From NCBI GenBank assembly GCA_000989185.1, contig LBNX01000004.1, forward strand, positions 23,797 through 87,796: a DNA stretch of 64,000 nt, written 5' to 3'. Position numbers and translations under genes: made by a program. Shown in pieces: positions 767 to 59,834 of this stretch (positions are counted from its first letter, which is position 1; every line of letters starts with the position of its first letter). The notes beneath the pieces are model-generated. The model made no database searches. It worked only from the letters and a program-made list of their open reading frames with translations, and had not been told where the DNA came from. Source of the DNA: a candidate division TM6 bacterium GW2011_GWF2_28_16 (GTDB lineage: Bacteria > Babelota > Babeliae > Babelales > UASB340).

Positions 767-1645
767 TTAACGTGAGATAATTAACCAAATTATTAAAATA
801 ATTATTGGTATTGGCATATAATATGCAAATTTATATAATTTGCCAGATTCAGCAATTTGTTTAACTTTTTTGAAAATAAAATAAGAGATAATGCTAGCCC
901 AGCCTACGCACAAGGCTACGGCGGGCATGCTATAATTAGGTGAAATATAATAAATAAAGTTTTTATTTGTCATTATAATTTTATAAACCCCCAACAAAAA
1001 TCCAGCGCAAATAATTGGGAATTGTATTAAAAATGTTATTTCAAAATTTCTTTTTAAATTTTTATTTAATAAACTCGCAAAAAAGAATACTGCTGCAAAT
1101 CTTGATATACCTGGGATTAGTGCAAGCCCCTGCACAAGGCCAAGAAGGGCAAAATTTATCGCAATGTGATTATTCGCCAGGCGATAGCCTGGCTCTACCT
1201 CAATGCCGCCACGCCTTGCGGCGGGCTCAAATGCCAGCAATAAGCCTGTTATACAAAAGCCAGTGAGTAATAAAAAATTAGAATTATAAAAGCTTAAATT
1301 TGTGATATAAAATTTAAATAAAAGCCAGATTAAAACTGTTATGCTGTCAGCAATAAAAATAAGCGATATTATTTTAAAAAATATTTTATATAAATTTTTA
1401 TAAGAATCTTTTAAATATATTTTTTTATTAAGTATGCCTGATAATAATTTTTGTATAGGCCCCCACCAGTTTTTATAAAAAATTATTAATAATATAATTA
1501 TTGTTGGTAAGTGCAAAACGTAATCAAAATATTCTGGAATATTTATACCAAAAAGTTTTTCTGCTAATAAAAAATGGCCAGAGCTCGAGATTGGCAGTGA
1601 TTCTAATATTATTTGTATAAAAATAAATATGATAATATAAAACAT
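767..1645 (-). CDS. uppP: undecaprenyl-diphosphate phosphatase (BacA/UppP family)
   Basis: 292 aa polytopic membrane protein. N-terminal LPISSSGH matches the UppP LPxSSxGH motif, and GLALIPGISR matches the ALxPGxSRSG motif. Confidence 0.85.
   Translation of the reverse strand: MFYIIIFIFIQIILESLPISSSGHFLLAEKLFGINIPEYFDYVLHLPTIIILLIIFYKNWWGPIQKLLSGILNKKIYLKDSYKNLYKIFFKIISLIFIADSITVLIWLLFKFYITNLSFYNSNFLLLTGFCITGLLLAFEPAARRGGIEVEPGYRLANNHIAINFALLGLVQGLALIPGISRFAAVFFFASLLNKNLKRNFEITFLIQFPIICAGFLLGVYKIIMTNKNFIYYISPNYSMPAVALCVGWASIISYFIFKKVKQIAESGKLYKFAYYMPIPIIILIIWLIISR
1175..1228. repeat. GC-rich palindromic segment translated in frame within uppP
   Basis: 54 nt encoding EPAARRGGIEVEPGYRLA. Contains hairpin GCCAGGC-gata-GCCTGGC (1176-1193). 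Also contains GCCGCCACGCCTTGCGGCGGGC, which resembles the intergenic modules at 5291-5318 and 11891-11916. GC rises sharply here in an AT-rich gene. Confidence 0.5.
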
Positions 1646-2467: not shown

Positions 2468-2757
2468 CTTTATTAGCTTCATCGAGACACCCATTCCACA
2501 AACGGTGGATGGGTGCGATTTGAAGCGACACAAAGGGTTTTAAAAGGGTCGTCCCTTTTATTTGCGGGGATCGCAAAGGGGTTGTCAAAACATAACCCCT
2601 TTGCAAACGAAATAAATATTTTAATTAAAAAAGAGTTTATCCAGCCTTCGCGTAAAGCTTCCAACTTCGCCAAGGCTTCGATGGACAGGACGGCGGACAC
2701 AGTCAGTAAAGATGATTTTCTTATATCTGGATCCTGAAATAAATTCAGGATGACAAA
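2468..2757. repeat. mosaic of GC-rich hairpin modules (A inverted, C, D, E, B inverted, F inverted)
   Basis: 2468-2527 is the rc of module A. AAAAGGG-tcgt-CCCTTTT lies at 2542-2559 and TTTGCG-gggat-CGCAAA at 2561-2577. GCAAAGGGGTT-gtcaaaacat-AACCCCTTTGC lies at 2573-2604. 2641-2699 is the rc of module B (5154-5212). 2725-2756 is an F hairpin. Confidence 0.8.
2725..2756 (-). repeat. F-type hairpin repeat
   Basis: The rc reads GTCATCCTGAA-tttat-TTCAGGATCCAGATAT, with a perfect 8-bp stem. Confidence 0.75.
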
Positions 2758-3237: not shown

Positions 3238-4761
3238 ATGAACAAACTGTTAAAAGGTTTACTTGTCACAGCTTTAGTTGTTGGCACCGTAAACGCAGAT
3301 ACAAACAAAACATTCTTAATGCCTAGATCAGCTGGCGTTAATCTTCCAATGGAATACACAACATTTAATGAATTAATTCAACATAAAAATGGCGACTTCT
3401 TTGGAGCTCATTTCCAAGTAGTTCCATTTTATATGGATTCAACAAATGGTTCTGATATAGGTAAGTATTTTGGTATTGCTGGCAAAAATACATTTGTAAT
3501 TGGTAACTCAACTTTAGTTACAGCAGGTACAGCTGATATGAATTATGGATATATAATTCATAATATAGCAACTGCAGCAACTGCTGGTGTTGCAACATTG
3601 AATTTTGATCCAGAACTACAAGCTTATGGTGCAAGAATTGATTATTATCAAGATTTAGAAAAAATTCTTGATGGTTTATATTTAAAAGTTGCATTACCTA
3701 TAGTTCACACTGAAACAAAGATAAATAGAACAGTTTCATCTGTTACAGCAAGTAACAATTTGACAGAAGCACACTTGAATGAATATTTTGCTGGTACTTA
3801 TTCTCAAGATATTGCAGATGCAAATGCTCAAGCAGTTCTTGAACATGCAAAAAGAGATGGTTCTCATTCAGAAACATCTGTTGCAGACATTGATGTAGTA
3901 TTAGGCTACAAGATTTGGGACAAAGAAAAATACTCTTTTGCATTAAATCTTGGCTTAACAATTCCTGTTGGCAATGATGCTGATGGAGATTGGGCATTTG
4001 AACCAATAGTCGGCAATGGCGATCATTGGGGCTTTGGTGGTGGCTTAGATGCAATGGTAAGACTTTGGAAGAAGAATGATCAAGATATTAAATTAACATT
4101 AGCAGCTAACTATAGATATTTATTCTCTGGTACAGAAAAGAGAACATTGGGCTTAAATGATGTTGATGGTGTAGAAGTTCCTTTTGGCCAATATTATTTA
4201 GCAGCAACAATTGGTGATATACGTAGAACTCAACAATTACAACCTGTTGCAAATCTTTTAACACAAGATGTTAAAGTAGAGACAGGCAGCCAATTGGATG
4301 CAGAGTTATATTTTACATATAACAATGGTGGCTGGAATGTAGAACTTGGCTATAACCTATTCTACAAAGATTCTGAAGATGTAAGTCTTAAGAATGCTTG
4401 GTCAGACGGAGTATATGGTATAGCATTTATAGATCAAACATTTGCTACTGGTGGTGATGGTACTTTCGTAGCATCTGCAGATGGTACTGCCGCTGTTGGT
4501 GCTAATGGTGGTTCTCGTGGTCTTATAAACAATACTCCAACAAATACAGCTTTAGGCCAAACAACCAGAGCTTATGGTATCAATACCCATGTCGCAGAAT
4601 CAGCATCACAATTTACAAACAAGATCTTTGGTGGCGTTGGATATATTTTCAGAGAATGGGAATATCCAATGATGCTAAACATCAGTGGTGCATATGAATT
4701 TGCTGATCGTGATGCAATTGAAAATTGGCAAATCTGGGGTAAGATTGGCGTTAAATTTTAA
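3238..4761 (+). CDS. secreted outer-membrane beta-barrel candidate, OMP family paralogue 1
   Basis: 507 aa with signal peptide MNKLLKGLLVTALVVGTVNA and a C-terminal ...WGKIGVKF ending in Phe. Clear paralogy with 6994-8571 and 13647-15074 (TNKT(F/Y)L..RS, DIGKYFG, LQP.AN.LTQ.VK..(T/P)GS.LD). SD GGGGAAAG upstream. Confidence 0.65.
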   Translation: MNKLLKGLLVTALVVGTVNADTNKTFLMPRSAGVNLPMEYTTFNELIQHKNGDFFGAHFQVVPFYMDSTNGSDIGKYFGIAGKNTFVIGNSTLVTAGTADMNYGYIIHNIATAATAGVATLNFDPELQAYGARIDYYQDLEKILDGLYLKVALPIVHTETKINRTVSSVTASNNLTEAHLNEYFAGTYSQDIADANAQAVLEHAKRDGSHSETSVADIDVVLGYKIWDKEKYSFALNLGLTIPVGNDADGDWAFEPIVGNGDHWGFGGGLDAMVRLWKKNDQDIKLTLAANYRYLFSGTEKRTLGLNDVDGVEVPFGQYYLAATIGDIRRTQQLQPVANLLTQDVKVETGSQLDAELYFTYNNGGWNVELGYNLFYKDSEDVSLKNAWSDGVYGIAFIDQTFATGGDGTFVASADGTAAVGANGGSRGLINNTPTNTALGQTTRAYGINTHVAESASQFTNKIFGGVGYIFREWEYPMMLNISGAYEFADRDAIENWQIWGKIGVKF

Positions 4762-4935: not shown

Positions 4936-5404
4936 TTTATTTCGTCTTTAGGGGACTTCATTTTGGAAGTCCCCTATAACCCCTGCAAACAAAAGAGTAA
5001 ACTCTTTTGAATCTCTTGACGCTTCAAATCGCACCCCTCCACCGTTGGTGGAACGGGTGTCTCGATGAAGCTAATAAAGTACTTTTTATAAATTGTAGCA
5101 TTATATCTAGTGTTTAATTTAAAGATCTCCATATTAGACTTACCTTGTCTGCCTGTCCGCCGTCCTGTCCATCGAAGCCTTGGCAAAGTTGGAAGCCTTG
5201 TGCAAAGGCTGGAAGTGCCTAATGACGTTAGTCAGGAGGCACGAGTTAAGTCGTAATAAAGGGTTTTAAAAGGGTCTTCCCTTTTGACCTGCCCGCCATA
5301 GCCTTGGCGACGGCTGGGTTTACAGGGGTTATAGGGGACCATTAAATACATCGATGCCCTTTAGGCGTTGAGATGAAATCATGGTCCCCTAAAGACGAAA
5401 TAAA
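4936..5404. mobile_element. 469-bp composite palindromic element bounded by perfect inverted repeats (MITE-like, no ORF)
   Basis: Outer IR is TTTATTTCGTCTTTAGGGGAC (4936-4956) against GTCCCCTAAAGACGAAATAAA (5384-5404), 21/21. Inner IR is GTCCCCTATAACCCCTG (4969-4985) against CAGGGGTTATAGGGGAC (5323-5339), 17/17. The interior carries module A (4986-5099), module B (5154-5212), module C (5258-5286) and a CGCCATAGCCTTGGCGACGGC module. Confidence 0.6.
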
Positions 5405-5991: not shown

Positions 5992-6062
5992 AAATTTAAT
6001 AAAATTTAAATAAATTTAGCGTATTTTGATTATATAAATATTATAATTATTTGTTTTATAAC

Positions 6063-6112
6063 TTTTACTTGGCCTATAATTATACTTATTGCTATATTAA
6101 TTTTATTAAATA
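6063..6112 (+). repeat. 50-bp direct repeat, copy 1 (upstream of the MNT/HEPN pair)
   Basis: TTTTACTTGGCCTATAATTATACTTATTGCTATATTAATTTTATTAAATA. Matches 6875-6924 at 48/50. Confidence 0.85.
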
Positions 6113-6143
6113 TTTAAATGTTAAAAAAAACAGGAACATAAAT

Positions 6144-6458
6144 ATGAAAAATATTTTGGATGAAATAAAAAATAGATTAGTAAAAGTATATAGTCCTACA
6201 AAAATATATTTATTTGGCTCTAGCGCTTGGGGTAAGCAAACACCAGAAAGTGATTTAGACTTATTGATATTAATTCCAGAATCTAACGAAAGAAGTTACA
6301 AACGAGCAATTAAAGGAGAATTAGCTTTAGCAGATTTATTGGTTTCTAGAGATTTACTTGTTTATACAGAAAAAGAATTTGAATCTCTAGCAAGCGATGT
6401 AACTACTTTATGCTATAAAATAAAAAAAGAGGGAAAAGTAATCTATGCAAATGCATGA
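6144..6458 (+). CDS. nucleotidyltransferase-domain protein (MNT-type antitoxin)
   Basis: Start moved to the ATG at 6144, which has an AGGA SD. Contains the GS...D.D minimal nucleotidyltransferase motif (LFGSSAWGKQTPESDLDLLIL). Overlaps the downstream HEPN gene by 14 nt. Confidence 0.75.
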   Translation: MKNILDEIKNRLVKVYSPTKIYLFGSSAWGKQTPESDLDLLILIPESNERSYKRAIKGELALADLLVSRDLLVYTEKEFESLASDVTTLCYKIKKEGKVIYANA

Positions 6459-6864
6459 TGCATGGTTAAAAAAAGCTCATAGTGATTTATTAATAGCAAA
6501 AAAACTTTTTGATTTAAATGAGCTTGATTTATTTGATGGCGCAGCATATCACACTCAACAGTGTGCAGAAAAAGCTTTTAAATCATATTTGGCATATAAA
6601 AAACAAAATATTGAAAAAACACATAATTTAGTTTTATTGGTAAAATTATGTAGTCAGTATGATGCTGAATTTGAATCTTTATTGAATATATCAGCTATCT
6701 TAAATCCATATAGTATTAAATTTAGATATCCAGATGATGTAATGGTTCCAGAAAAGAGTGACTTAAAAGAGGCAATAGACTCTGCAGAAGTTATATTTAA
6801 ATTTATAAAGAAAAAAATTTCTGAGTTTAATACAGGACAGGGTAGTATATTTAGAAAATTATAA
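6445..6864 (+). CDS. HEPN-domain protein (toxin of the HEPN/MNT pair)
   Basis: 139 aa all-helical protein directly coupled to the MNT gene. The layout and size are typical of HEPN partners. Confidence 0.65.
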   Translation: MQMHDAWLKKAHSDLLIAKKLFDLNELDLFDGAAYHTQQCAEKAFKSYLAYKKQNIEKTHNLVLLVKLCSQYDAEFESLLNISAILNPYSIKFRYPDDVMVPEKSDLKEAIDSAEVIFKFIKKKISEFNTGQGSIFRKL

Positions 6865-6924: not shown

Positions 6925-6926
6925 GG

Positions 6927-6958
6927 ATTAGATCACGGCTCGGCGGCCGGGATGACAT
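6927..6958 (-). repeat. F-type hairpin repeat (GC-stem subtype)
   Basis: The rc reads GTCATCCCGGC-cgccga-GCCGTGATCTAA, with one stem mismatch. Confidence 0.65.
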
Positions 6959-6993
6959 ACTGTGTGATAGTATTTTTAAAAGAAAGAGAGAGT

Positions 6994-8571
6994 ATGAACA
7001 AAATTTCAAAAAATTTTATATTTAAATTTTTATTATTTTTAAATTTATTTTTTATAAATAATATTTATTCGACAGAAACAAATAAAACTTATCTTTTATC
7101 AAGATCTACTGGTGTAAACTTATCAATGGAGTACACGACTTTTAATAATTTTGTAAATTACAGAGATGATAAGCGTGCCCGGGATAATAAAGACAATAGC
7201 TTTGGGGCGCATATACAAGCAACGCCATATTATTTAGAATCGAATAATGGCAAAGATATAGGTAAATATTTTGGTTTTGATGATAAAAATATTTTACGAA
7301 TAGCTAGAAATAATATTGCTGGTTATGATCTAGATTTTAGATATATGGTGCATGATAATGTAAATACAGCAAATACAAATGCAATTGTAAAACTTGATCC
7401 AAAGTTTGAATCGTATGGTTTGCGTCTTGATTATTATCAAAAATTAGAAAAATTTCTCGATGGTTTATATTTTAAAATAGCTATACCAATATCTTATGTT
7501 AAAACAGATGTGCGATTAAATATTGCTGATCAGGCTGGATATTTTGTTGCTGGAACAAACACAGATTTGTATAAATATTTTGATGGCACTTATAATTTAC
7601 CTGTAGGTAATGCCCGAGCTCAAGCTGCTCTTGAATATGCAAAAATTTCTCAACATAAATTTTCAAAGACAAGCGTTGCAGATTTAGATTTAGTTTTAGG
7701 TTGCAAGTTTATAGATAGAGATAAATACTATGCAATAATAAATTTTGCATTAACAATACCAACAAATAACGAAGCTGGTGCCGGATATATGTTTGATGTA
7801 AATGTTGGCAATGGTAGTTATTGGGCTTTGGGTGGTGGGCTCGAAGGTATGATGCGCTTGTTTGGAAAAACAAATGATCATAATTTAAATTTAGTTGCAG
7901 TTGCAAATTATAGATATTTATTCGAAGGCAGAGCTGAGCGAACTATGGGTTTATTAAATCCAGATGGTACACGTGCAAACTGGGGCCAATATTATTTGGT
8001 TGGCGAAATTGGTACAGCTGTAAGTACACAACAGTTACAGCCTGCTGCAAATGTTTTGACACAAAGAGTAAAACTTGCTCCGGGTAGCCAATTAGATTCT
8101 ATGATCTATTTAAATTATAAATATTCTGGATTTACAGCAGAATTAGGTTATAACTTTTTCTGGCGTGATGACGAACAAATTAGTTTAAAAAATGAATGGC
8201 AAAATAATGTTTATGGCGTAGCAATTTTAGATCAAGATATGACTATTGCTGGAGGCGCAACTTTTGCAAACACTGGTTTTGCAGCTACAGCTGTACCTGT
8301 TAACGGTGGCTCTATGGGATATATTAATAATGACCCAGATAACACAGCTTTTACTGCTGCAGGAACAGTTGCAACTAGAGCTTATGGTTTAGATGAAGGT
8401 GTAGGTGCTGCCAGTTCACAAAATACACACAAAATTTTTGCTGGTTTGGGTTATGGCTTTTATGATTTTAAATTTCCCTGCATGCTTGGCATCGGCGGAG
8501 CATATGAATTTAATGGCGATGATGGAATTGAAAATTGGCAAGTTTATGGCAAAGTGGGATTAAAGTTTTAA
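6994..8571 (+). CDS. secreted outer-membrane beta-barrel candidate, OMP family paralogue 2
   Basis: Start moved to the ATG at 6994, after AGAAAGAGAGAG. Has a signal peptide and a C-terminal ...YGKVGLKF. Collinear with paralogue 1 along its whole length. Confidence 0.65.
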   Translation: MNKISKNFIFKFLLFLNLFFINNIYSTETNKTYLLSRSTGVNLSMEYTTFNNFVNYRDDKRARDNKDNSFGAHIQATPYYLESNNGKDIGKYFGFDDKNILRIARNNIAGYDLDFRYMVHDNVNTANTNAIVKLDPKFESYGLRLDYYQKLEKFLDGLYFKIAIPISYVKTDVRLNIADQAGYFVAGTNTDLYKYFDGTYNLPVGNARAQAALEYAKISQHKFSKTSVADLDLVLGCKFIDRDKYYAIINFALTIPTNNEAGAGYMFDVNVGNGSYWALGGGLEGMMRLFGKTNDHNLNLVAVANYRYLFEGRAERTMGLLNPDGTRANWGQYYLVGEIGTAVSTQQLQPAANVLTQRVKLAPGSQLDSMIYLNYKYSGFTAELGYNFFWRDDEQISLKNEWQNNVYGVAILDQDMTIAGGATFANTGFAATAVPVNGGSMGYINNDPDNTAFTAAGTVATRAYGLDEGVGAASSQNTHKIFAGLGYGFYDFKFPCMLGIGGAYEFNGDDGIENWQVYGKVGLKF

Positions 8572-12126: not shown

Positions 12127-13629
12127 ATGGAAAATTTATTTAAAATAATTAAAAAATTAAACCCAATATTAAAAGAAATAATAAATAATGGTTCTGTACC
12201 GTATCTTGTTGGTGGTAGCGTGCGAGATTTAGTTTTAAATTTAGAAACAAAAGATCTTGATATAGAAGTTCATAAAATATCTATAAAAGATTTAGAAAAA
12301 ATTTTAAAAAAATTTGGACATGTGCGTCTTGTTGGTCAAAAATTTGGTGTTTTAAAAATAGATGGAATAAACGTAGATTGGTCATTACCCAGAAAAGATA
12401 GTATTGGCAGAAAGCCAAAAGTTATAATAAAAAAAGATATTTCTATAAAAGATGCGCTTGTACGGCGTGATTTAACTATTAATGCAATGGCTATAGATTT
12501 GCGGGAGCTTTTAAAAAATAAAAATAATTTTAAAAAAATAATTATTGACCCATTTGGTGGCCTAAAAGATATTAAAAATAAAAAATTAAGAGTTATTGAT
12601 GCTAATTTTTTTGTTCAGGATCCTTTAAGATTATTTAGAGTTATGCAATTTGCAGCACGTTTTAATATGGCGCCAGATAAAAATTTAAATAATATTTGTA
12701 AAACTATGAGTTTGCAGGACCCAGCAACAGGAAAATTAATTTCGCGTGAACGAATTTTTGATGAAATTAAAAAATTATTATTAAAGAGTAAACAACCAAG
12801 TATTGGCTTTAGATGGCTATTAAAAATAAATAGATTAAAAGATATTTTTCCTGAAATTTATAATTTAATTGGTGTTAAACAGAAAAAAGAATATCATCCA
12901 GAGGGTGATGTGTTTGAGCACACTATGCAGTGTATAGATGTTGCTGCAAATCTTGATATTTATGAAACAGAAAACGAAAAATTCTTGATTATTTTAGCGC
13001 TTTTGTGTCACGATTTTGGCAAGCCAAAAGTTACAGATAAAAATTTATCAGCAATAGGGCACGAAAAAGAGGGCGTAGAAATTGCAAAAAAATTTTTAAA
13101 GCGAATTACGCGCGATAAAAATTTGATAAACTCTGTGTGCAAGTTGGTTTTGTATCACATGCAGCCAGCGCAATTATTAAAAAGTAATGCAAAAATTAGT
13201 GCATATAAAAGATTAGCTATAAAACTTGCCACAGATATAAACATGAAACAACTTGGCATTGTTTGGCTTGCGGATAATTTGGGACGGGTAGCGTATCGCT
13301 CGGGTAGACGCTTCGATACACCTCGCGTTGTTCGGCACTCAGCGCGAACGGGAAGTTTGAAAAAACACGCCGTGCAGGCTTTGTCATCCCGGGCAAGGAC
13401 CCGGGATCTAGAAAATAAAATAATAAGTGAGTTTAAACAATATTTAAAAATAATAAAAAATTTAAATATAGAAACAGGTCCGGAAAAGCCAATTTTACTT
13501 GGCCGTGATATTTTGGATAAAGTAAAACCAGGGCCTCAAATGGGTAAAATTTTAAAATGTGCTTATAAAATACAAATAGAGGAGGGTGTTAAAGATAAGG
13601 AGACGTTAAAGAAAAGAGTATTAAAGTAG
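12127..13629 (+). CDS. cca: CCA-adding enzyme / poly(A) polymerase family nucleotidyltransferase with HD domain
   Basis: N-terminal YLVGGSVRD...DLDIEV matches the class II nucleotidyltransferase GGxVRD...DxD motif. The HD-domain motif LLCHDFGK is present. Confidence 0.85.
   Translation: MENLFKIIKKLNPILKEIINNGSVPYLVGGSVRDLVLNLETKDLDIEVHKISIKDLEKILKKFGHVRLVGQKFGVLKIDGINVDWSLPRKDSIGRKPKVIIKKDISIKDALVRRDLTINAMAIDLRELLKNKNNFKKIIIDPFGGLKDIKNKKLRVIDANFFVQDPLRLFRVMQFAARFNMAPDKNLNNICKTMSLQDPATGKLISRERIFDEIKKLLLKSKQPSIGFRWLLKINRLKDIFPEIYNLIGVKQKKEYHPEGDVFEHTMQCIDVAANLDIYETENEKFLIILALLCHDFGKPKVTDKNLSAIGHEKEGVEIAKKFLKRITRDKNLINSVCKLVLYHMQPAQLLKSNAKISAYKRLAIKLATDINMKQLGIVWLADNLGRVAYRSGRRFDTPRVVRHSARTGSLKKHAVQALSSRARTRDLENKIISEFKQYLKIIKNLNIETGPEKPILLGRDILDKVKPGPQMGKILKCAYKIQIEEGVKDKETLKKRVLK
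13282..13413 (+). repeat. composite GC-rich palindromic element translated in frame within cca (ends in an F hairpin)
   Basis: 44 codons (about G386-E429, ...VAYRSGRRFDTPRVVRHSARTGSLKKHAVQALSSRARTRDLE). 13381-13413 is TTGTCATCCCGGG-caagga-CCCGGGATCTAGAA with a perfect stem. The 5' part shares CTCAG(C/G)GCGAACG(G/A)GA with 18462-18540. Confidence 0.75.
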
Positions 13630-13646: not shown

Positions 13647-15074
13647 ATGAAAAAAAATATTTTGTTATTATTAGTGCTTAGCTTATTTGCAGCTAACATA
13701 TCTGCATATACAAATAAAACATATATGCGCCCACAAGATAGTTCTACGTATTTACCAGATAGATTTAGAGTAAATGATTATTATAAAGCTGATTTTAAAA
13801 TGCCTAGCTTAATAGGTAAATTAGATATTACTGCTTATCATTTTCATTCTATAAGTAAAGATAAAATGGGAAGATATTTTGGTGTGAATGAAAAAAGTGA
13901 ATTTAATTTTATTGGTGATCAAACCAATGATGATATGGATATTGACTACAGATATTTAATTTCAAATTATTCTGCACATACTAATTATTCTGCAAAAATG
14001 AGTCTTGATCCAAAAACACAATATGCAGGCTTTAATGCATCTGTTATATTAGATTTATCTAGAATAAATAAACATTTAGCGTTTAAGATTAATGTTCCAT
14101 ATCAAAGAGTACATACAGATTTGCGTTCAAATTTTTCTTCTTCTAATGCAAGTTTGATTAAAGATTATTTAGCGGGTGATTATTCTTTAAATGTTGCAGC
14201 AGGTACTCGTAATCAAGAAGCATTAAGATATGCAAAAATTACTGATCAACAAGAAAAATTAGGCATTCCATTTATGGATTTTTGTCTTGCATATAACACT
14301 CATAACGAAGATGGTTTAATTAATACAGTAAAACTTGGATTTATTTCAACAGTAGAAAAAAAAGCTACAGCTGAATATCTTTTTGAACCAATATTAGGGA
14401 ACAATAATCACTTTGGTATTGATGTTGGTATTGAAGGTAGCAAAAGACTTTTTGATGGTAATGGTCATAGAAGTTTTGTAGATTTTGTTTGGGATTTAAA
14501 TTATAAATATTTATTCTCTAATACACAGTTTAGAACTTTGGGTATAAAGGGTGCAAACTGGGGACAATATTATTTATTAGGTAAAGAGGGCGTTTCTGGT
14601 GCATTTATTCCTGCTGCCAACGTTTTGACTCAAAATGTAAAAGTTGAACCAGGTAGTCACCTTGATTTAAATTTAGAATTATTATTTGGATATCATGCAT
14701 CTAGAGTTTCTGTTGGTGGTAATATTATTGCAAGACAAGAAGAAGAATTAGATTTTAAAAATAATCTTGCGACTCAAACTTATGGTGTAGTTACACCAGG
14801 AACATCTTCTGCTGTAAACTTTGATTTAAGTACTAATGTTGGACTTGGTAATTATACAACATATGCTTTAAGCAACGATAATATAGATTTAAAAGCTGCT
14901 CAAGCTCCAGGTATATTTGCTTACAAAGTTTATTTGCAGTATGCATATGATTATGTAAAACGAAATACAGAAAGAATGTTTACAGTCGCAACAGGTGTAT
15001 CTCTTAACATTACAGATCAGAATGCTCATTTTGACGGCATTGGGTGTTGGTTTAAGATGGCTGCATATTTTTAA
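13647..15074 (+). CDS. secreted outer-membrane beta-barrel candidate, OMP family paralogue 3 (divergent)
   Basis: 475 aa with signal peptide and TNKTYMRP start of the mature protein. Contains RYFG, NWGQYYLL and PAANVLTQNVKVEPGSHLD, and ends in Phe. Starts 17 nt after cca. Confidence 0.6.
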   Translation: MKKNILLLLVLSLFAANISAYTNKTYMRPQDSSTYLPDRFRVNDYYKADFKMPSLIGKLDITAYHFHSISKDKMGRYFGVNEKSEFNFIGDQTNDDMDIDYRYLISNYSAHTNYSAKMSLDPKTQYAGFNASVILDLSRINKHLAFKINVPYQRVHTDLRSNFSSSNASLIKDYLAGDYSLNVAAGTRNQEALRYAKITDQQEKLGIPFMDFCLAYNTHNEDGLINTVKLGFISTVEKKATAEYLFEPILGNNNHFGIDVGIEGSKRLFDGNGHRSFVDFVWDLNYKYLFSNTQFRTLGIKGANWGQYYLLGKEGVSGAFIPAANVLTQNVKVEPGSHLDLNLELLFGYHASRVSVGGNIIARQEEELDFKNNLATQTYGVVTPGTSSAVNFDLSTNVGLGNYTTYALSNDNIDLKAAQAPGIFAYKVYLQYAYDYVKRNTERMFTVATGVSLNITDQNAHFDGIGCWFKMAAYF

Positions 15075-21877: not shown

Positions 21878-22714
21878 CTATTGTCTAAAATCGATAGTAA
21901 AAATTTTACCACATAAAAAACCATAAAATTTAAATTGTTTAATAGCATTTATTATACTTAGATCATAAATTAAAATATTTGATTTTTCTGTAAAATTAAA
22001 TTCTGTTACATTACCATTACTGTCTGTAGCTAATTTTAATTTGCATTCGGTTCCTTTTGGTACGCCTACTGGTGGGTGCCAAGTTGTTTTTACGATTCCT
22101 TTAATTTGTTCTCCAGCTGCTTTAAGGTTAGGATCTTGCTCTCCTGTTTCTTCTAGATTAAATACTAGTTCTTGATTTTCTTGGATATTATTTTCTGGAG
22201 TTATTTCTGGTTCTAATTCTTTTTCTGGTTCTGGGGCCTGTTCAGGTTCTTGGGCTTTTTCTTTTTTTTGGTCTATTTTTTTAGGTTTTTCTTCTTTTTT
22301 TTGTTTAACTTTTTTCTTTTTTTTCTCTTGTGATTCTTTTATTTTAGACTCTTGTTCGAGCTTTTTTTGTTTTGCGAGTTCTAGATCACGGGTCTTAGCC
22401 TGGGATGACAATATCTTTGCCTTTTTTTGTGCTTCTATTTTTGCCTTGCGAGCTTTTTCGGCTTTAATTTTTGCATTTCGTTTTTCTTTTAATTCTTTTT
22501 CTTGAGCGATTCTTTTTGCATACCAGTTAGTTTGTTTATTTTCTTTATTAGATTTAAATAATGCTTGAGTTGGGATTTTAGAGTGAGCTCCATATACTAA
22601 AAAATGTTTGTCTATTTTTTTATTATATAGTCCTGTAAAAAGGGCAATAAGTATTATTGTTATATGTATCCAAAAAGAACGTATTATATATTTTTTTAGT
22701 ATTTTATCTTCCAT
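21878..22714 (-). CDS. tolA: TolA-like protein (N-terminal anchor, K/E-rich spacer, C-terminal globular domain)
   Basis: 278 aa with TM helix IIRSFWIHITIILIALFTGL and a long KEKxxAK-rich region. Called mainly by its position in the tol cluster. Confidence 0.55.
   Translation of the reverse strand: MEDKILKKYIIRSFWIHITIILIALFTGLYNKKIDKHFLVYGAHSKIPTQALFKSNKENKQTNWYAKRIAQEKELKEKRNAKIKAEKARKAKIEAQKKAKILSSQAKTRDLELAKQKKLEQESKIKESQEKKKKKVKQKKEEKPKKIDQKKEKAQEPEQAPEPEKELEPEITPENNIQENQELVFNLEETGEQDPNLKAAGEQIKGIVKTTWHPPVGVPKGTECKLKLATDSNGNVTEFNFTEKSNILIYDLSIINAIKQFKFYGFLCGKIFTIDFRQ
22379..22411 (-). repeat. F-type hairpin repeat translated in frame within tolA-like gene
   Basis: The sense strand reads TTGTCATCCCAGG-ctaaga-CCCGTGATCTAGAA and encodes LSSQAKTRDLE. 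Orientation and reading frame match the cca copy, which encodes LSSRARTRDLE. Confidence 0.7.
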
Positions 22715-39474: not shown

Positions 39475-39482
39475 AAAATGTG

Positions 39483-39543
39483 GTAGCCCAGCGATGTCCG
39501 TCGAAGCCTGTGGCGAAGACTGGATGCGCAAGCGCTGGGCTAC
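39483..39543. repeat. GC-rich clamp hairpin containing a module B-like core, between convergent lpxC and rseP
   Basis: GTAGCCCAGCG (39483-39493) pairs with CGCTGGGCTAC (39533-39543), 11/11. The interior TGTCCGTCGAAGCCTGTGGCGAAGACTGGATGC resembles module B TGTCCATCGAAGCCTTGGCGAAGTTGGAAGC. Confidence 0.65.
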
Positions 39544-39560
39544 ATGATAACTTATATTAG

Positions 39561-59728: not shown

Positions 59729-59762
59729 TTGTCATCCTGAACTTGTTTCAGGATCTAGATAT
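59729..59762 (+). repeat. F-type hairpin repeat (reference copy), immediately after the rplQ stop
   Basis: TTGTCATCCTGAA-cttgt-TTCAGGATCTAGATAT with a perfect 8-bp stem. It begins on the nucleotide after the TAA. Confidence 0.8.
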
Positions 59763-59783
59763 ATAAAGTTAAACCAATAAATT

Positions 59784-59822
59784 AAAAAAAAGACTCGTGA
59801 AAATATCACGAGTCTTTTTTTT
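59784..59822. terminator. bidirectional rho-independent terminator ending the ribosomal cluster
   Basis: A-run, AGACTCGTGA-aaata-TCACGAGTCT, T-run. Confidence 0.8.
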
Positions 59823-59834
59823 GTTTATATATTT

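Follow-up and report, generated by a model that had tools for sequence, protein, structure and literature searches.

How does a GC-rich hairpin come to lie in frame inside a gene of an AT-rich genome, and why does a second gene of the same genome carry such a hairpin in the same reading frame? These questions are raised by the tolA-like gene of candidate division TM6 (Dependentiae) bacterium GW2011_GWF2_28_16, which lies in the 64-kb stretch of DNA analysed here (the window), with a GC content of 29.7% and forming part of a 265-kb groundwater-metagenome contig. A preliminary description of the window had noted that a 33-nucleotide hairpin repeat is translated as LSSQAKTRDLE in the tolA-like gene and as LSSRARTRDLE in the cca gene, in sense orientation and in the same codon phase, and had taken the agreement as a sign either of selection against other frames and orientations or of a frame-biased insertion process. 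We consider it highly probable that the tolA-like copy (c2) is a decayed in-frame relic of a known family of TGTC-tagged hairpins in a tolerant region of the gene, and that it shares its frame with the cca copy (c1) by chance.

The coordinates (Table 1) and translations of both copies are confirmed. The tolA-like copy, TTGTCATCCCAGGCTAAGACCCGTGATCTAGAA, starts at codon 102 of its open reading frame (ORF), and the cca copy, TTGTCATCCCGGGCAAGGACCCGGGATCTAGAA, at codon 419; both are in sense orientation, each begins at the first base of a codon, and they are identical at 29 of 33 bases and differ at four. No match to c1 with six or fewer mismatches was found in 60 first-order Markov shuffles of the window, and none to c2 with three or fewer in 100 shuffles. 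The 8-bp stem of c1 (ATCCCGGG/CCCGGGAT) is perfect, whereas exactly two of the eight pairs of c2 are mismatched (C9.T24 and A11.C22). The predicted folding energy is -1.8 kcal/mol for c2 against -14.9 kcal/mol for c1 as RNA, and 0.0 against -8.6 as DNA. Three of the four differences are G-to-A or G-to-T changes in c2, a bias in keeping with the AT pressure on a genome of about 30% GC, and c2 stands as a GC-rich island within the AT-rich lysine-codon tract of the gene. The suggestion that the tolA-like copy has eroded since its insertion is upheld by the two stem mismatches and the folding energy near zero.

The hairpins c1 to c5 of the window can be assigned, by their sequence, to a single family variously known as CGTC- or TGTC-tagged repetitive extragenic palindromes (REPs), Neisseria dRS3 or NTS, Rickettsia RPE-4 and RPE-6, and the Ssn-related motif (SRM). 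The CGTC-tagged REPs were defined by Di Nocera, De Gregorio and Rocco in 2013 and include Neisseria dRS3 and RPE-4 and RPE-6 of Rickettsia conorii (PMC3733652). In these repeats a stem of 8-9 bp, with A-T and T-A as its first pairs, follows a CGTC tag ("changed to TGTC in many repeats"); the loop has 4-5 nucleotides, and the 3-nucleotide tail is near CCA (PMC3733652). In 2025 the oriented 28-nucleotide Neisseria form was renamed NTS (CGTCATTCCCGCGMAVGCGGGAATCYRG) and the wider class was termed "Ssn-related motifs" (PMC11893778). The unit found here has the tag TGTC, an 8-bp stem opening with A-T and T-A, a loop of 5-6 nucleotides and a short tail C(T/C)AG(A). Bases 13382-13411 of c1 match the published SRM string HGTCWYN(0-2)YYVSBRHN(0-5)WNVSBRGN(0-2)RNCYNB (PMC11893778), which found no match in 50 shuffles.

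The contig was extended by about 9 kb upstream and about 8 kb downstream of the window, so that 81 kb were examined. A search for the conserved flanks recovered five copies in the window. A relaxed scan of the 81 kb gave 12 matches, 10 of them good copies, where 100 shuffles gave 1.0 on average and 5 at most. The 8-bp stem of this repeat, ATCCNNNN/NNNNGGAT, encloses a loop of 5 nucleotides in c3 and c4 and of 6 nucleotides in c1, c2 and c5, and the tail is CTA or CCA. The stem is of a GC subtype in c1, c2 and c5 and of an AT subtype in c3 and c4 (ATCCTGAA/TTCAGGAT). TGTC precedes ATCC in six copies, namely c1 to c5 and the antisense copy of a lipoprotein ORF located upstream of the window. The two sense copies of that ORF also have TGTC, with G rather than T as the preceding base, and two tandem intergenic copies have the tag GGTC. 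Because the copies are short and their stems differ, the family escaped a generic repeat finder.

The family extends over a wide range of taxa. A scan with the pattern TTGTCATCC-N10-16-KGATCYAGA in a collection with one genome per species matched at least 120 stretches from many phyla; among the matches listed are Patescibacteria, Saccharibacteria, another member of Dependentiae, Wolbachia, Rickettsiales, Coxiellaceae, Magnetococcales, Dehalococcoidia, Nitrospirota, Bdellovibrionales and one Bathyarchaeia bin. Also among the matches listed, 76 with sufficient flanks have a stem of at least seven consecutive pairs and of varied sequence, against one of 29 matches in a viral collection that served as background. 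The stem is kept by compensatory changes across family members: C-G, G-C, A-T and T-A pairs are all used at stem positions 5-8, which are paired in 73-90% of 92 unique members against 36-68% after shuffling of the partners. Many loci have an inverted partner 5-40 nucleotides downstream. The exact 25-nucleotide stem-loop of c1 recurs in 26 stretches of JGI metagenome contigs with GC contents of 29-63%. Rfam models at their gathering thresholds detected only tRNAs in the window and 18 matched loci, and nothing at the hairpins.

The origin of the two gene copies can be judged from relatives. A syntenic sister contig of 15 kb (L003) is the closest relative found, with a TolA of 76% amino acid identity in alignment. 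It reads AQKK-AKAQKLEL-AKQKK where the window reads AQKKAKI-LSSQAKTRDLE-LAKQKK. In cca, a nearly invariant GR motif is followed by 42 residues (388-429) in the window and by 9 in L003, and the insert is absent from L003 and from 63 Dependentiae CCA homologues. Neither a peptide of the LSSxAxTRDLE type nor any other repeat-derived peptide was found in the other TolA-like or CCA homologues collected. Both gene copies are thus lineage-specific insertions, the cca case being the clean one, and the alternative that the tolA segment is ancestral is set aside by its absence from L003 and the other collected homologues.

The cca copy is a separate insertion, younger than the tolA copy, with its hairpin still perfect. 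It forms the 3' 33 nucleotides of an insert of 126 nucleotides, and no second copy of the 106-nucleotide upstream part of this insert was found in a BLAST search against the window and all fetched loci. The first 93 nucleotides of the insert are GC-rich and self-folding and are distinct from the TGTC hairpin. In the structural model of the CCA-adding enzyme (mean predicted local distance difference test score, pLDDT, 91.9) the least confident part is residues 391-410, followed by 411-420 with intermediate values; a surface excursion of low pLDDT is followed by the hairpin-encoded residues, which prolong the N-terminus of a predicted helix spanning residues 411-445. The TolA-like protein has a membrane helix at its N-terminus, a long stretch rich in Lys, Glu, Ala and Gln, a disordered linker and a C-terminal TonB_2 domain (PF13103). 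In its AlphaFold2 model (mean pLDDT 69.5) residues 64-137 form a single long helix that runs through the insert, with the disordered linker and the C-terminal domain after it. As modelled, the insertion would be tolerated in TolA, where it makes a spacer longer by a net seven residues than in the sister.

The preliminary description had considered the reading frame shared by the two copies the one frame that stays open, but translation in six frames finds an intact GC-stem copy to be stop-free in four of them (LSSRARTRDLE, VIPGKDPGSR, SRSRVLARDD and LDPGSLPGMT), and the probability of two copies sharing the same one of four open frames is about 1/4. Its remark that the copy after rplQ (c3) would read LSS-stop in that frame is borne out by translation. 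Frames were tallied in three sets: the 81 kb of the source contig, at least 120 loci from other taxa and the intragenic repeats tabulated in the literature. Five of the ten copies in the 81 kb are intragenic, and they fall into three frame and orientation classes (LSS... twice, CHPEL... twice, antisense RDPGS..GMT once), which refutes the argument for a privileged frame. Pfam-confirmed genes of other taxa contain in-frame copies in all five stop-free frames. For R. conorii alone, Additional file 3 of the 2013 study lists about 30 CGTC units that lie within genes, and their peptides (VIPAKAGI, SFPRKRES, CHSRESGNP, DSRFRGND and WIPAFTGMT) represent every stop-free frame (PMC3733652). Since several frames are in use here, in other taxa and in the published table, nothing beyond the removal of stop-containing insertions is needed to account for the shared frame; the frame common to the tolA and cca copies is a matter of chance among four stop-free frames, not a rule. 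Purifying selection against stop-containing frames would then be the only filter acting on frames. The earlier proposal of selection is retained to that extent, as the loss of stop-containing frames explains the data, but the other open frames and orientations supposed to be selected against do occur.

The history of the tolA copy is probably best reconstructed as follows. Copies of a mobile or amplifiable hairpin repeat would land anywhere in the genome, and selection would remove those that add stops, shift the frame or disrupt folded parts, so that the survivors would be in-frame copies in spacers and surface loops, later decaying. The tolA copy would have entered the Lys/Glu-rich helical spacer after the split from the closest sampled relative. 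With a net gain of 21 nucleotides, a multiple of three, and a stop-free frame, the gene would have stayed functional and the insertion would have been kept. Two of the eight pairs would later have been broken by G-to-A and G-to-T changes, as nothing maintained the hairpin.

Several observations weigh against this interpretation. The strict SRM string, which demands G or C at stem positions, fits neither the decayed c2 nor the two AT-stem copies (c3 and c4), and the 6-nucleotide loop of c1 exceeds the 4-5 nucleotides stated for the CGTC families. The net difference between the window and L003 at the tolA site is 21 nucleotides, not a clean 33, and the empty site of L003 already has CTAGAA at the position of the element's tail, so that the extent of the inserted segment and of any accompanying deletion is uncertain. 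Two courses are conceivable for the event in tolA: a small deletion may have accompanied the insertion, or the surrounding tract may have diverged after it. The tolA region is of low complexity, and a single close relative was available. Finally, phmmer and a small GIY-YIG profile, run over every ORF of the window, its flanks and the sister contig, detected no GIY-YIG or Ssn gene, either in the window or in the 81 kb as a whole.

The shared frame would be less of a coincidence if local protein structure picked it, open frames containing Pro or Gly being purged inside helices. Two of the four stop-free frames, LSSRARTRDLE and the antisense SRSRVLARDD, are free of both residues, which VIPGKDPGSR and LDPGSLPGMT contain; both LSS-frame copies lie in predicted helices (TolA 64-137, CCA 411-445), and the frames with Pro and Gly are found elsewhere, in the lipoprotein of this genome and in membrane-protein ORFs of other taxa. 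We regard this possibility, which would refine our explanation and not replace it, as conceivable but doubtful, as there are two such cases only and inserts of the VIPAKAGI type occur in many kinds of proteins in the published table (PMC3733652).

A frame-biased insertion process, for instance one that targets a codon-phased CTA GAA and so favours the LSS...DLE phase, is improbable. The presence of CTAGAA in the empty tolA site of L003, exactly where the element's tail CTAGAA lies, could mean microhomology-guided integration, but the empty cca site of L003 lacks this motif, no target-site duplication or common flanking motif was found among the ten copies in the 81 kb, and copies here and elsewhere occur in several phases and both orientations, leaving the bias that had been proposed without support. 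It is still harder to believe that the tolA hairpin is a functional RNA or DNA structure under selection, such as an attenuator, an RNase site, a pause site or an Ssn cutting site. Repeats of this family that lie downstream of genes have been proposed to act at the RNA level (PMC3733652), and in Neisseria Ssn cutting at NTS modulates transformation (PMC11893778); the tolA stem, however, has lost two of its eight pairs and has a folding energy near zero, the sister lineage does without the hairpin, and Rfam has no match there. Least credible of all is that c2 is ordinary coding sequence resembling the repeat by chance or convergence: its right part can be loosely aligned to the sister, GCTAAR and CTAGAA being common to both, but the 29 of 33 match to c1 was never seen in shuffles, and a GC-rich island in an AT-rich tract has the full order of tag, stem, loop, stem and tail.

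Three known kinds of element were rejected as identities for the repeat. An intrinsic terminator is excluded as no copy is followed by a T run, and the bidirectional rplQ terminator is a separate hairpin at 59783-59823. In a miniature inverted-repeat transposable element the flanks would be complementary, which TTGTC and CTAGA are not, and no duplication is present at the ten sites. A GTAG REP or RAYT-associated REPIN is ruled out by the tag TGTC and by the adjacent gene elsewhere, which encodes a GIY-YIG protein.

Table 1. Genes, hairpin copies and in-frame copies in other taxa. Positions refer to the window unless a locus with an L number is given.
Feature	Position	Strand	Remarks
tolA-like gene	21878..22714	-	278 amino acids; member of tolQ-tolR-tolA-tolB cluster
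Decayed TGTC-tagged hairpin repeat, copy c2	22379..22411	-	in frame in tolA-like gene, residues 102-112
cca gene, CCA-adding enzyme	12127..13629	+	PolyA_pol and HD domains; 500 amino acids against 464-490 in most homologues
Intact hairpin repeat, copy c1	13381..13413	+	in frame in cca, residues 419-429, LSSRARTRDLE
Rest of lineage-specific GC-rich cca insertion	13288..13380	+	residues 388-418; not SRM
Copy c3, AT-stem subtype	59729..59760	+	TTGTCATCCTGAACTTGTTTCAGGATCTAGAT; directly 3' of rplQ stop codon
Copy c4, AT-stem subtype	2726..2756	-	TTGTCATCCTGAATTTATTTCAGGATCCAGA; intergenic
Copy c5, GC-stem subtype, one stem mismatch	6925..6957	-	TGTCATCCCGGCCGCCGAGCCGTGATCTAATCC; between HEPN gene and outer-membrane-protein gene
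Lipoprotein ORF, 204 amino acids	L155 19210..19824	-	about 8-9 kb upstream of window, same contig; three in-frame hairpin copies
O-antigen ligase	L063		VIPHLMRDPG and LSSQTRFGIQ in one protein
MurD	L093		VSFQRVTLESR and YLDPSVSYLDDK
PMT_2 mannosyltransferase-like protein	L117		SGSRIGVRDDK
Methionyl-tRNA synthetase (MetRS)	L152		LSFPRKRESS
RNase HII	L136		LSSPRRRGSR
Group 1 glycosyltransferase	L037		in-frame copy

The lipoprotein ORF has one antisense copy (RDPGSQAGMT) and two sense copies in another phase (CHPELVSGSR and CHPELDSGSS). Its status as a gene rests on its lipobox signal peptide, its annotation in the public record and the probability of 6e-7 that 204 codons of such composition would be free of stops by chance; neither Pfam nor NCBIfam yielded a match. 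It also contains another GC-rich in-frame segment, SVRPAAGKIVANGAVGLPARHSSQERR. Just upstream of c5, at 6051-6864 of the window, lies a nucleotidyltransferase and HEPN pair resembling a toxin-antitoxin system.

Other GC-rich repeats of the window appear to be of different kinds. A GC-rich island in frame in the BacA/UppP gene (767..1645, minus strand), at window positions 1172-1248 and with a peptide of about EPAARRGGIEVEPGYRLANN, looks like an insertion derived from a repeat of a different hairpin family. Longer GC-rich repeats of 60-136 nucleotides, 87-95% identical and both direct and inverted, are located at 500-700, 2200-2700 and 4990-5340; they represent a different family and flank paralogous outer-membrane-protein genes at 3238-4761, 6952-8571 and 13647-15074. 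A 70-nucleotide GC-rich palindrome at 39478-39547 (GTAGCCCAGCG...CGCTGGGCTAC) has GTAG at its end and may be a REP of the GTAG type beside the TGTC type.

Individual loci of other taxa add to the picture of the family. A 31-nucleotide hairpin identical to c4 occurs in Kazan bacterium RIFCSPHIGHO2_01_FULL_44_14 (L111, 1460-1490), whose RIFCSP prefix we take, unverified, to denote the same Rifle aquifer, and one identical to c3 in the metagenome-assembled genome GFS_5816 (L089, 7294-7324). These identities suggest that the repeat is exchanged between phyla or that its sequence is very tightly constrained. The single perfect 8-bp hairpin among the 29 matches in the viral collection lies in an IMG/VR contig of 66% GC (L009, 5000-5030) and equals Rhodospirillaceae copies in L096 and L108; the contig is probably a prophage or a host fragment that contains the repeat. 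A member of the family with a single mismatched stem pair in a Candidatus Bathyarchaeia bin (L085, 3790-3820) represents either a true archaeal occurrence or a binning error. At four loci (L087, L056, L041 and L048) tandem arrays of the 5' half, composed of the tag, the 5' arm and a few bases (for example, three units of tttgtcatcccgcacttatct), are found directly upstream of a complete hairpin. We know of no description of such half-site arrays.

The nuclease linked to the family is SsnA of Neisseria meningitidis, a small single-domain GIY-YIG protein that binds and cuts the hairpin strictly as single-stranded DNA and in a strand-specific manner (PMC11893778). In Neisseria, Ssn cutting takes place at the NTS repeats; ssn genes often have repeats on their flanks, and the authors point to a layout of hairpin, ssn and hairpin like that of an insertion sequence and to a parallel with the REP/RAYT system (PMC11893778). 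The c1 hairpin adjoins genes of 97-residue GIY-YIG (Ssn-like) proteins in five metagenome contigs (L162, L177, L178, L160 and L169), with hairpins on both sides in several of them. A protein search with the hairpin-adjacent GIY-YIG protein listed 120 relatives, and none from GW2011_GWF2_28_16 was among the matches listed. The repeats may have spread by way of an Ssn-type nuclease or single-stranded DNA intermediates. In the Ga0172379 metagenome, truncated or disrupted ssn-like GIY-YIG ORFs are fused to hairpin-derived peptides (L164 9363-9635, L182 5891-6280, L163 4657-4950 and L157 1371-1529), which suggests that the nuclease genes themselves are broken up by the repeats.

The repeats of the window resemble the CGTC REPs in being dispersed, often just 3' of genes, with some located wholly within ORFs and translated in several frames, and the CGTC-2 peptide RHSELVSGS of Sulfurovum is close to CHPELVSGS of the lipoprotein found here (PMC3733652). 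They differ in their host, as the 2013 list of five phyla does not include Dependentiae/TM6 (PMC3733652), in being mostly singletons and not head-to-head dimers, and in the 6-nucleotide loop of c1. With the NTS and SRM elements they share the flanks GTCAT...ATCYRG, the fit of c1 to the SRM string and, in other contigs, the hairpin-gene-hairpin layout that the identical hairpin forms with small GIY-YIG genes; unlike in the NTS/SRM-Ssn system, no ssn gene was found in the 81 kb. The terms "intragenic", "in-frame" and "open reading" are absent from the main text of the 2025 paper, where "coding" occurs twice, both times for regions flanking genes (PMC11893778).

A parallel in coding sequences is provided by the "protein-coding palindromes" RPE-1 (Ogata et al. 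2000, as summarised in PMC10969869), which are found in frame in unrelated housekeeping genes and are compatible with folding and function. Like RPE-1, the tolA and cca copies are palindromic, interrupt conserved genes in frame and are absent from orthologues, in a reduced AT-rich host-dependent bacterium; the lipoprotein ORF has further in-frame copies. RPE-1 elements, on the other hand, are about 100-150 bp long and not CGTC-tagged, whereas the unit here is about 30 nucleotides; the 126-nucleotide cca insert is nearer the size of RPE-1, but the recognisable repeat is its last 33 nucleotides only. GTAG REPs and REPINs, which are mobilised by RAYT (IS200/IS605-type) transposases, are likewise short hairpins; they have a tetranucleotide tag that is conserved, often form inverted pairs and are occasionally intragenic, but combine the tag GTAG with a tyrosine transposase in place of TGTC and, elsewhere, a GIY-YIG nuclease. 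The GC clusters of yeast mitochondria are also GC-rich palindromes in a very AT-rich genome, one of them in frame in var1; they belong to an unrelated family, in an organelle, and have no known link to GIY-YIG Ssn proteins.

These results settle the identity of the GC-rich hairpin of this AT-rich genome and tie TM6/Dependentiae to a repeat family catalogued in 2013 and linked in 2025 to a site-specific single-strand nuclease. They reveal no new mechanism; a known repeat family is found in a phylum further to those of the 2013 survey. For annotation, the peptides LSSRARTRDLE, VIPGKDPGS, CHPELVSGS and LDPGS..GMT in conserved proteins are to be read as repeat insertions and not as protein features. 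The in-frame residence of such repeats in housekeeping genes extends beyond Rickettsia. A bolder and rather unlikely proposal is that TGTC-tagged hairpins of the Ssn type are now actively colonising coding sequences in bacteria of Dependentiae and the candidate phyla radiation. Phyla living together would pass identical hairpins to one another, perhaps even where no Ssn gene is resident, and the surviving frame would be set by local structure, with Pro/Gly-free frames in helices and others in loops. If this were true, reduced genomes would in general receive short peptide insertions from these repeats, filtered by protein structure, and the RPE of Rickettsia would be one instance of it.

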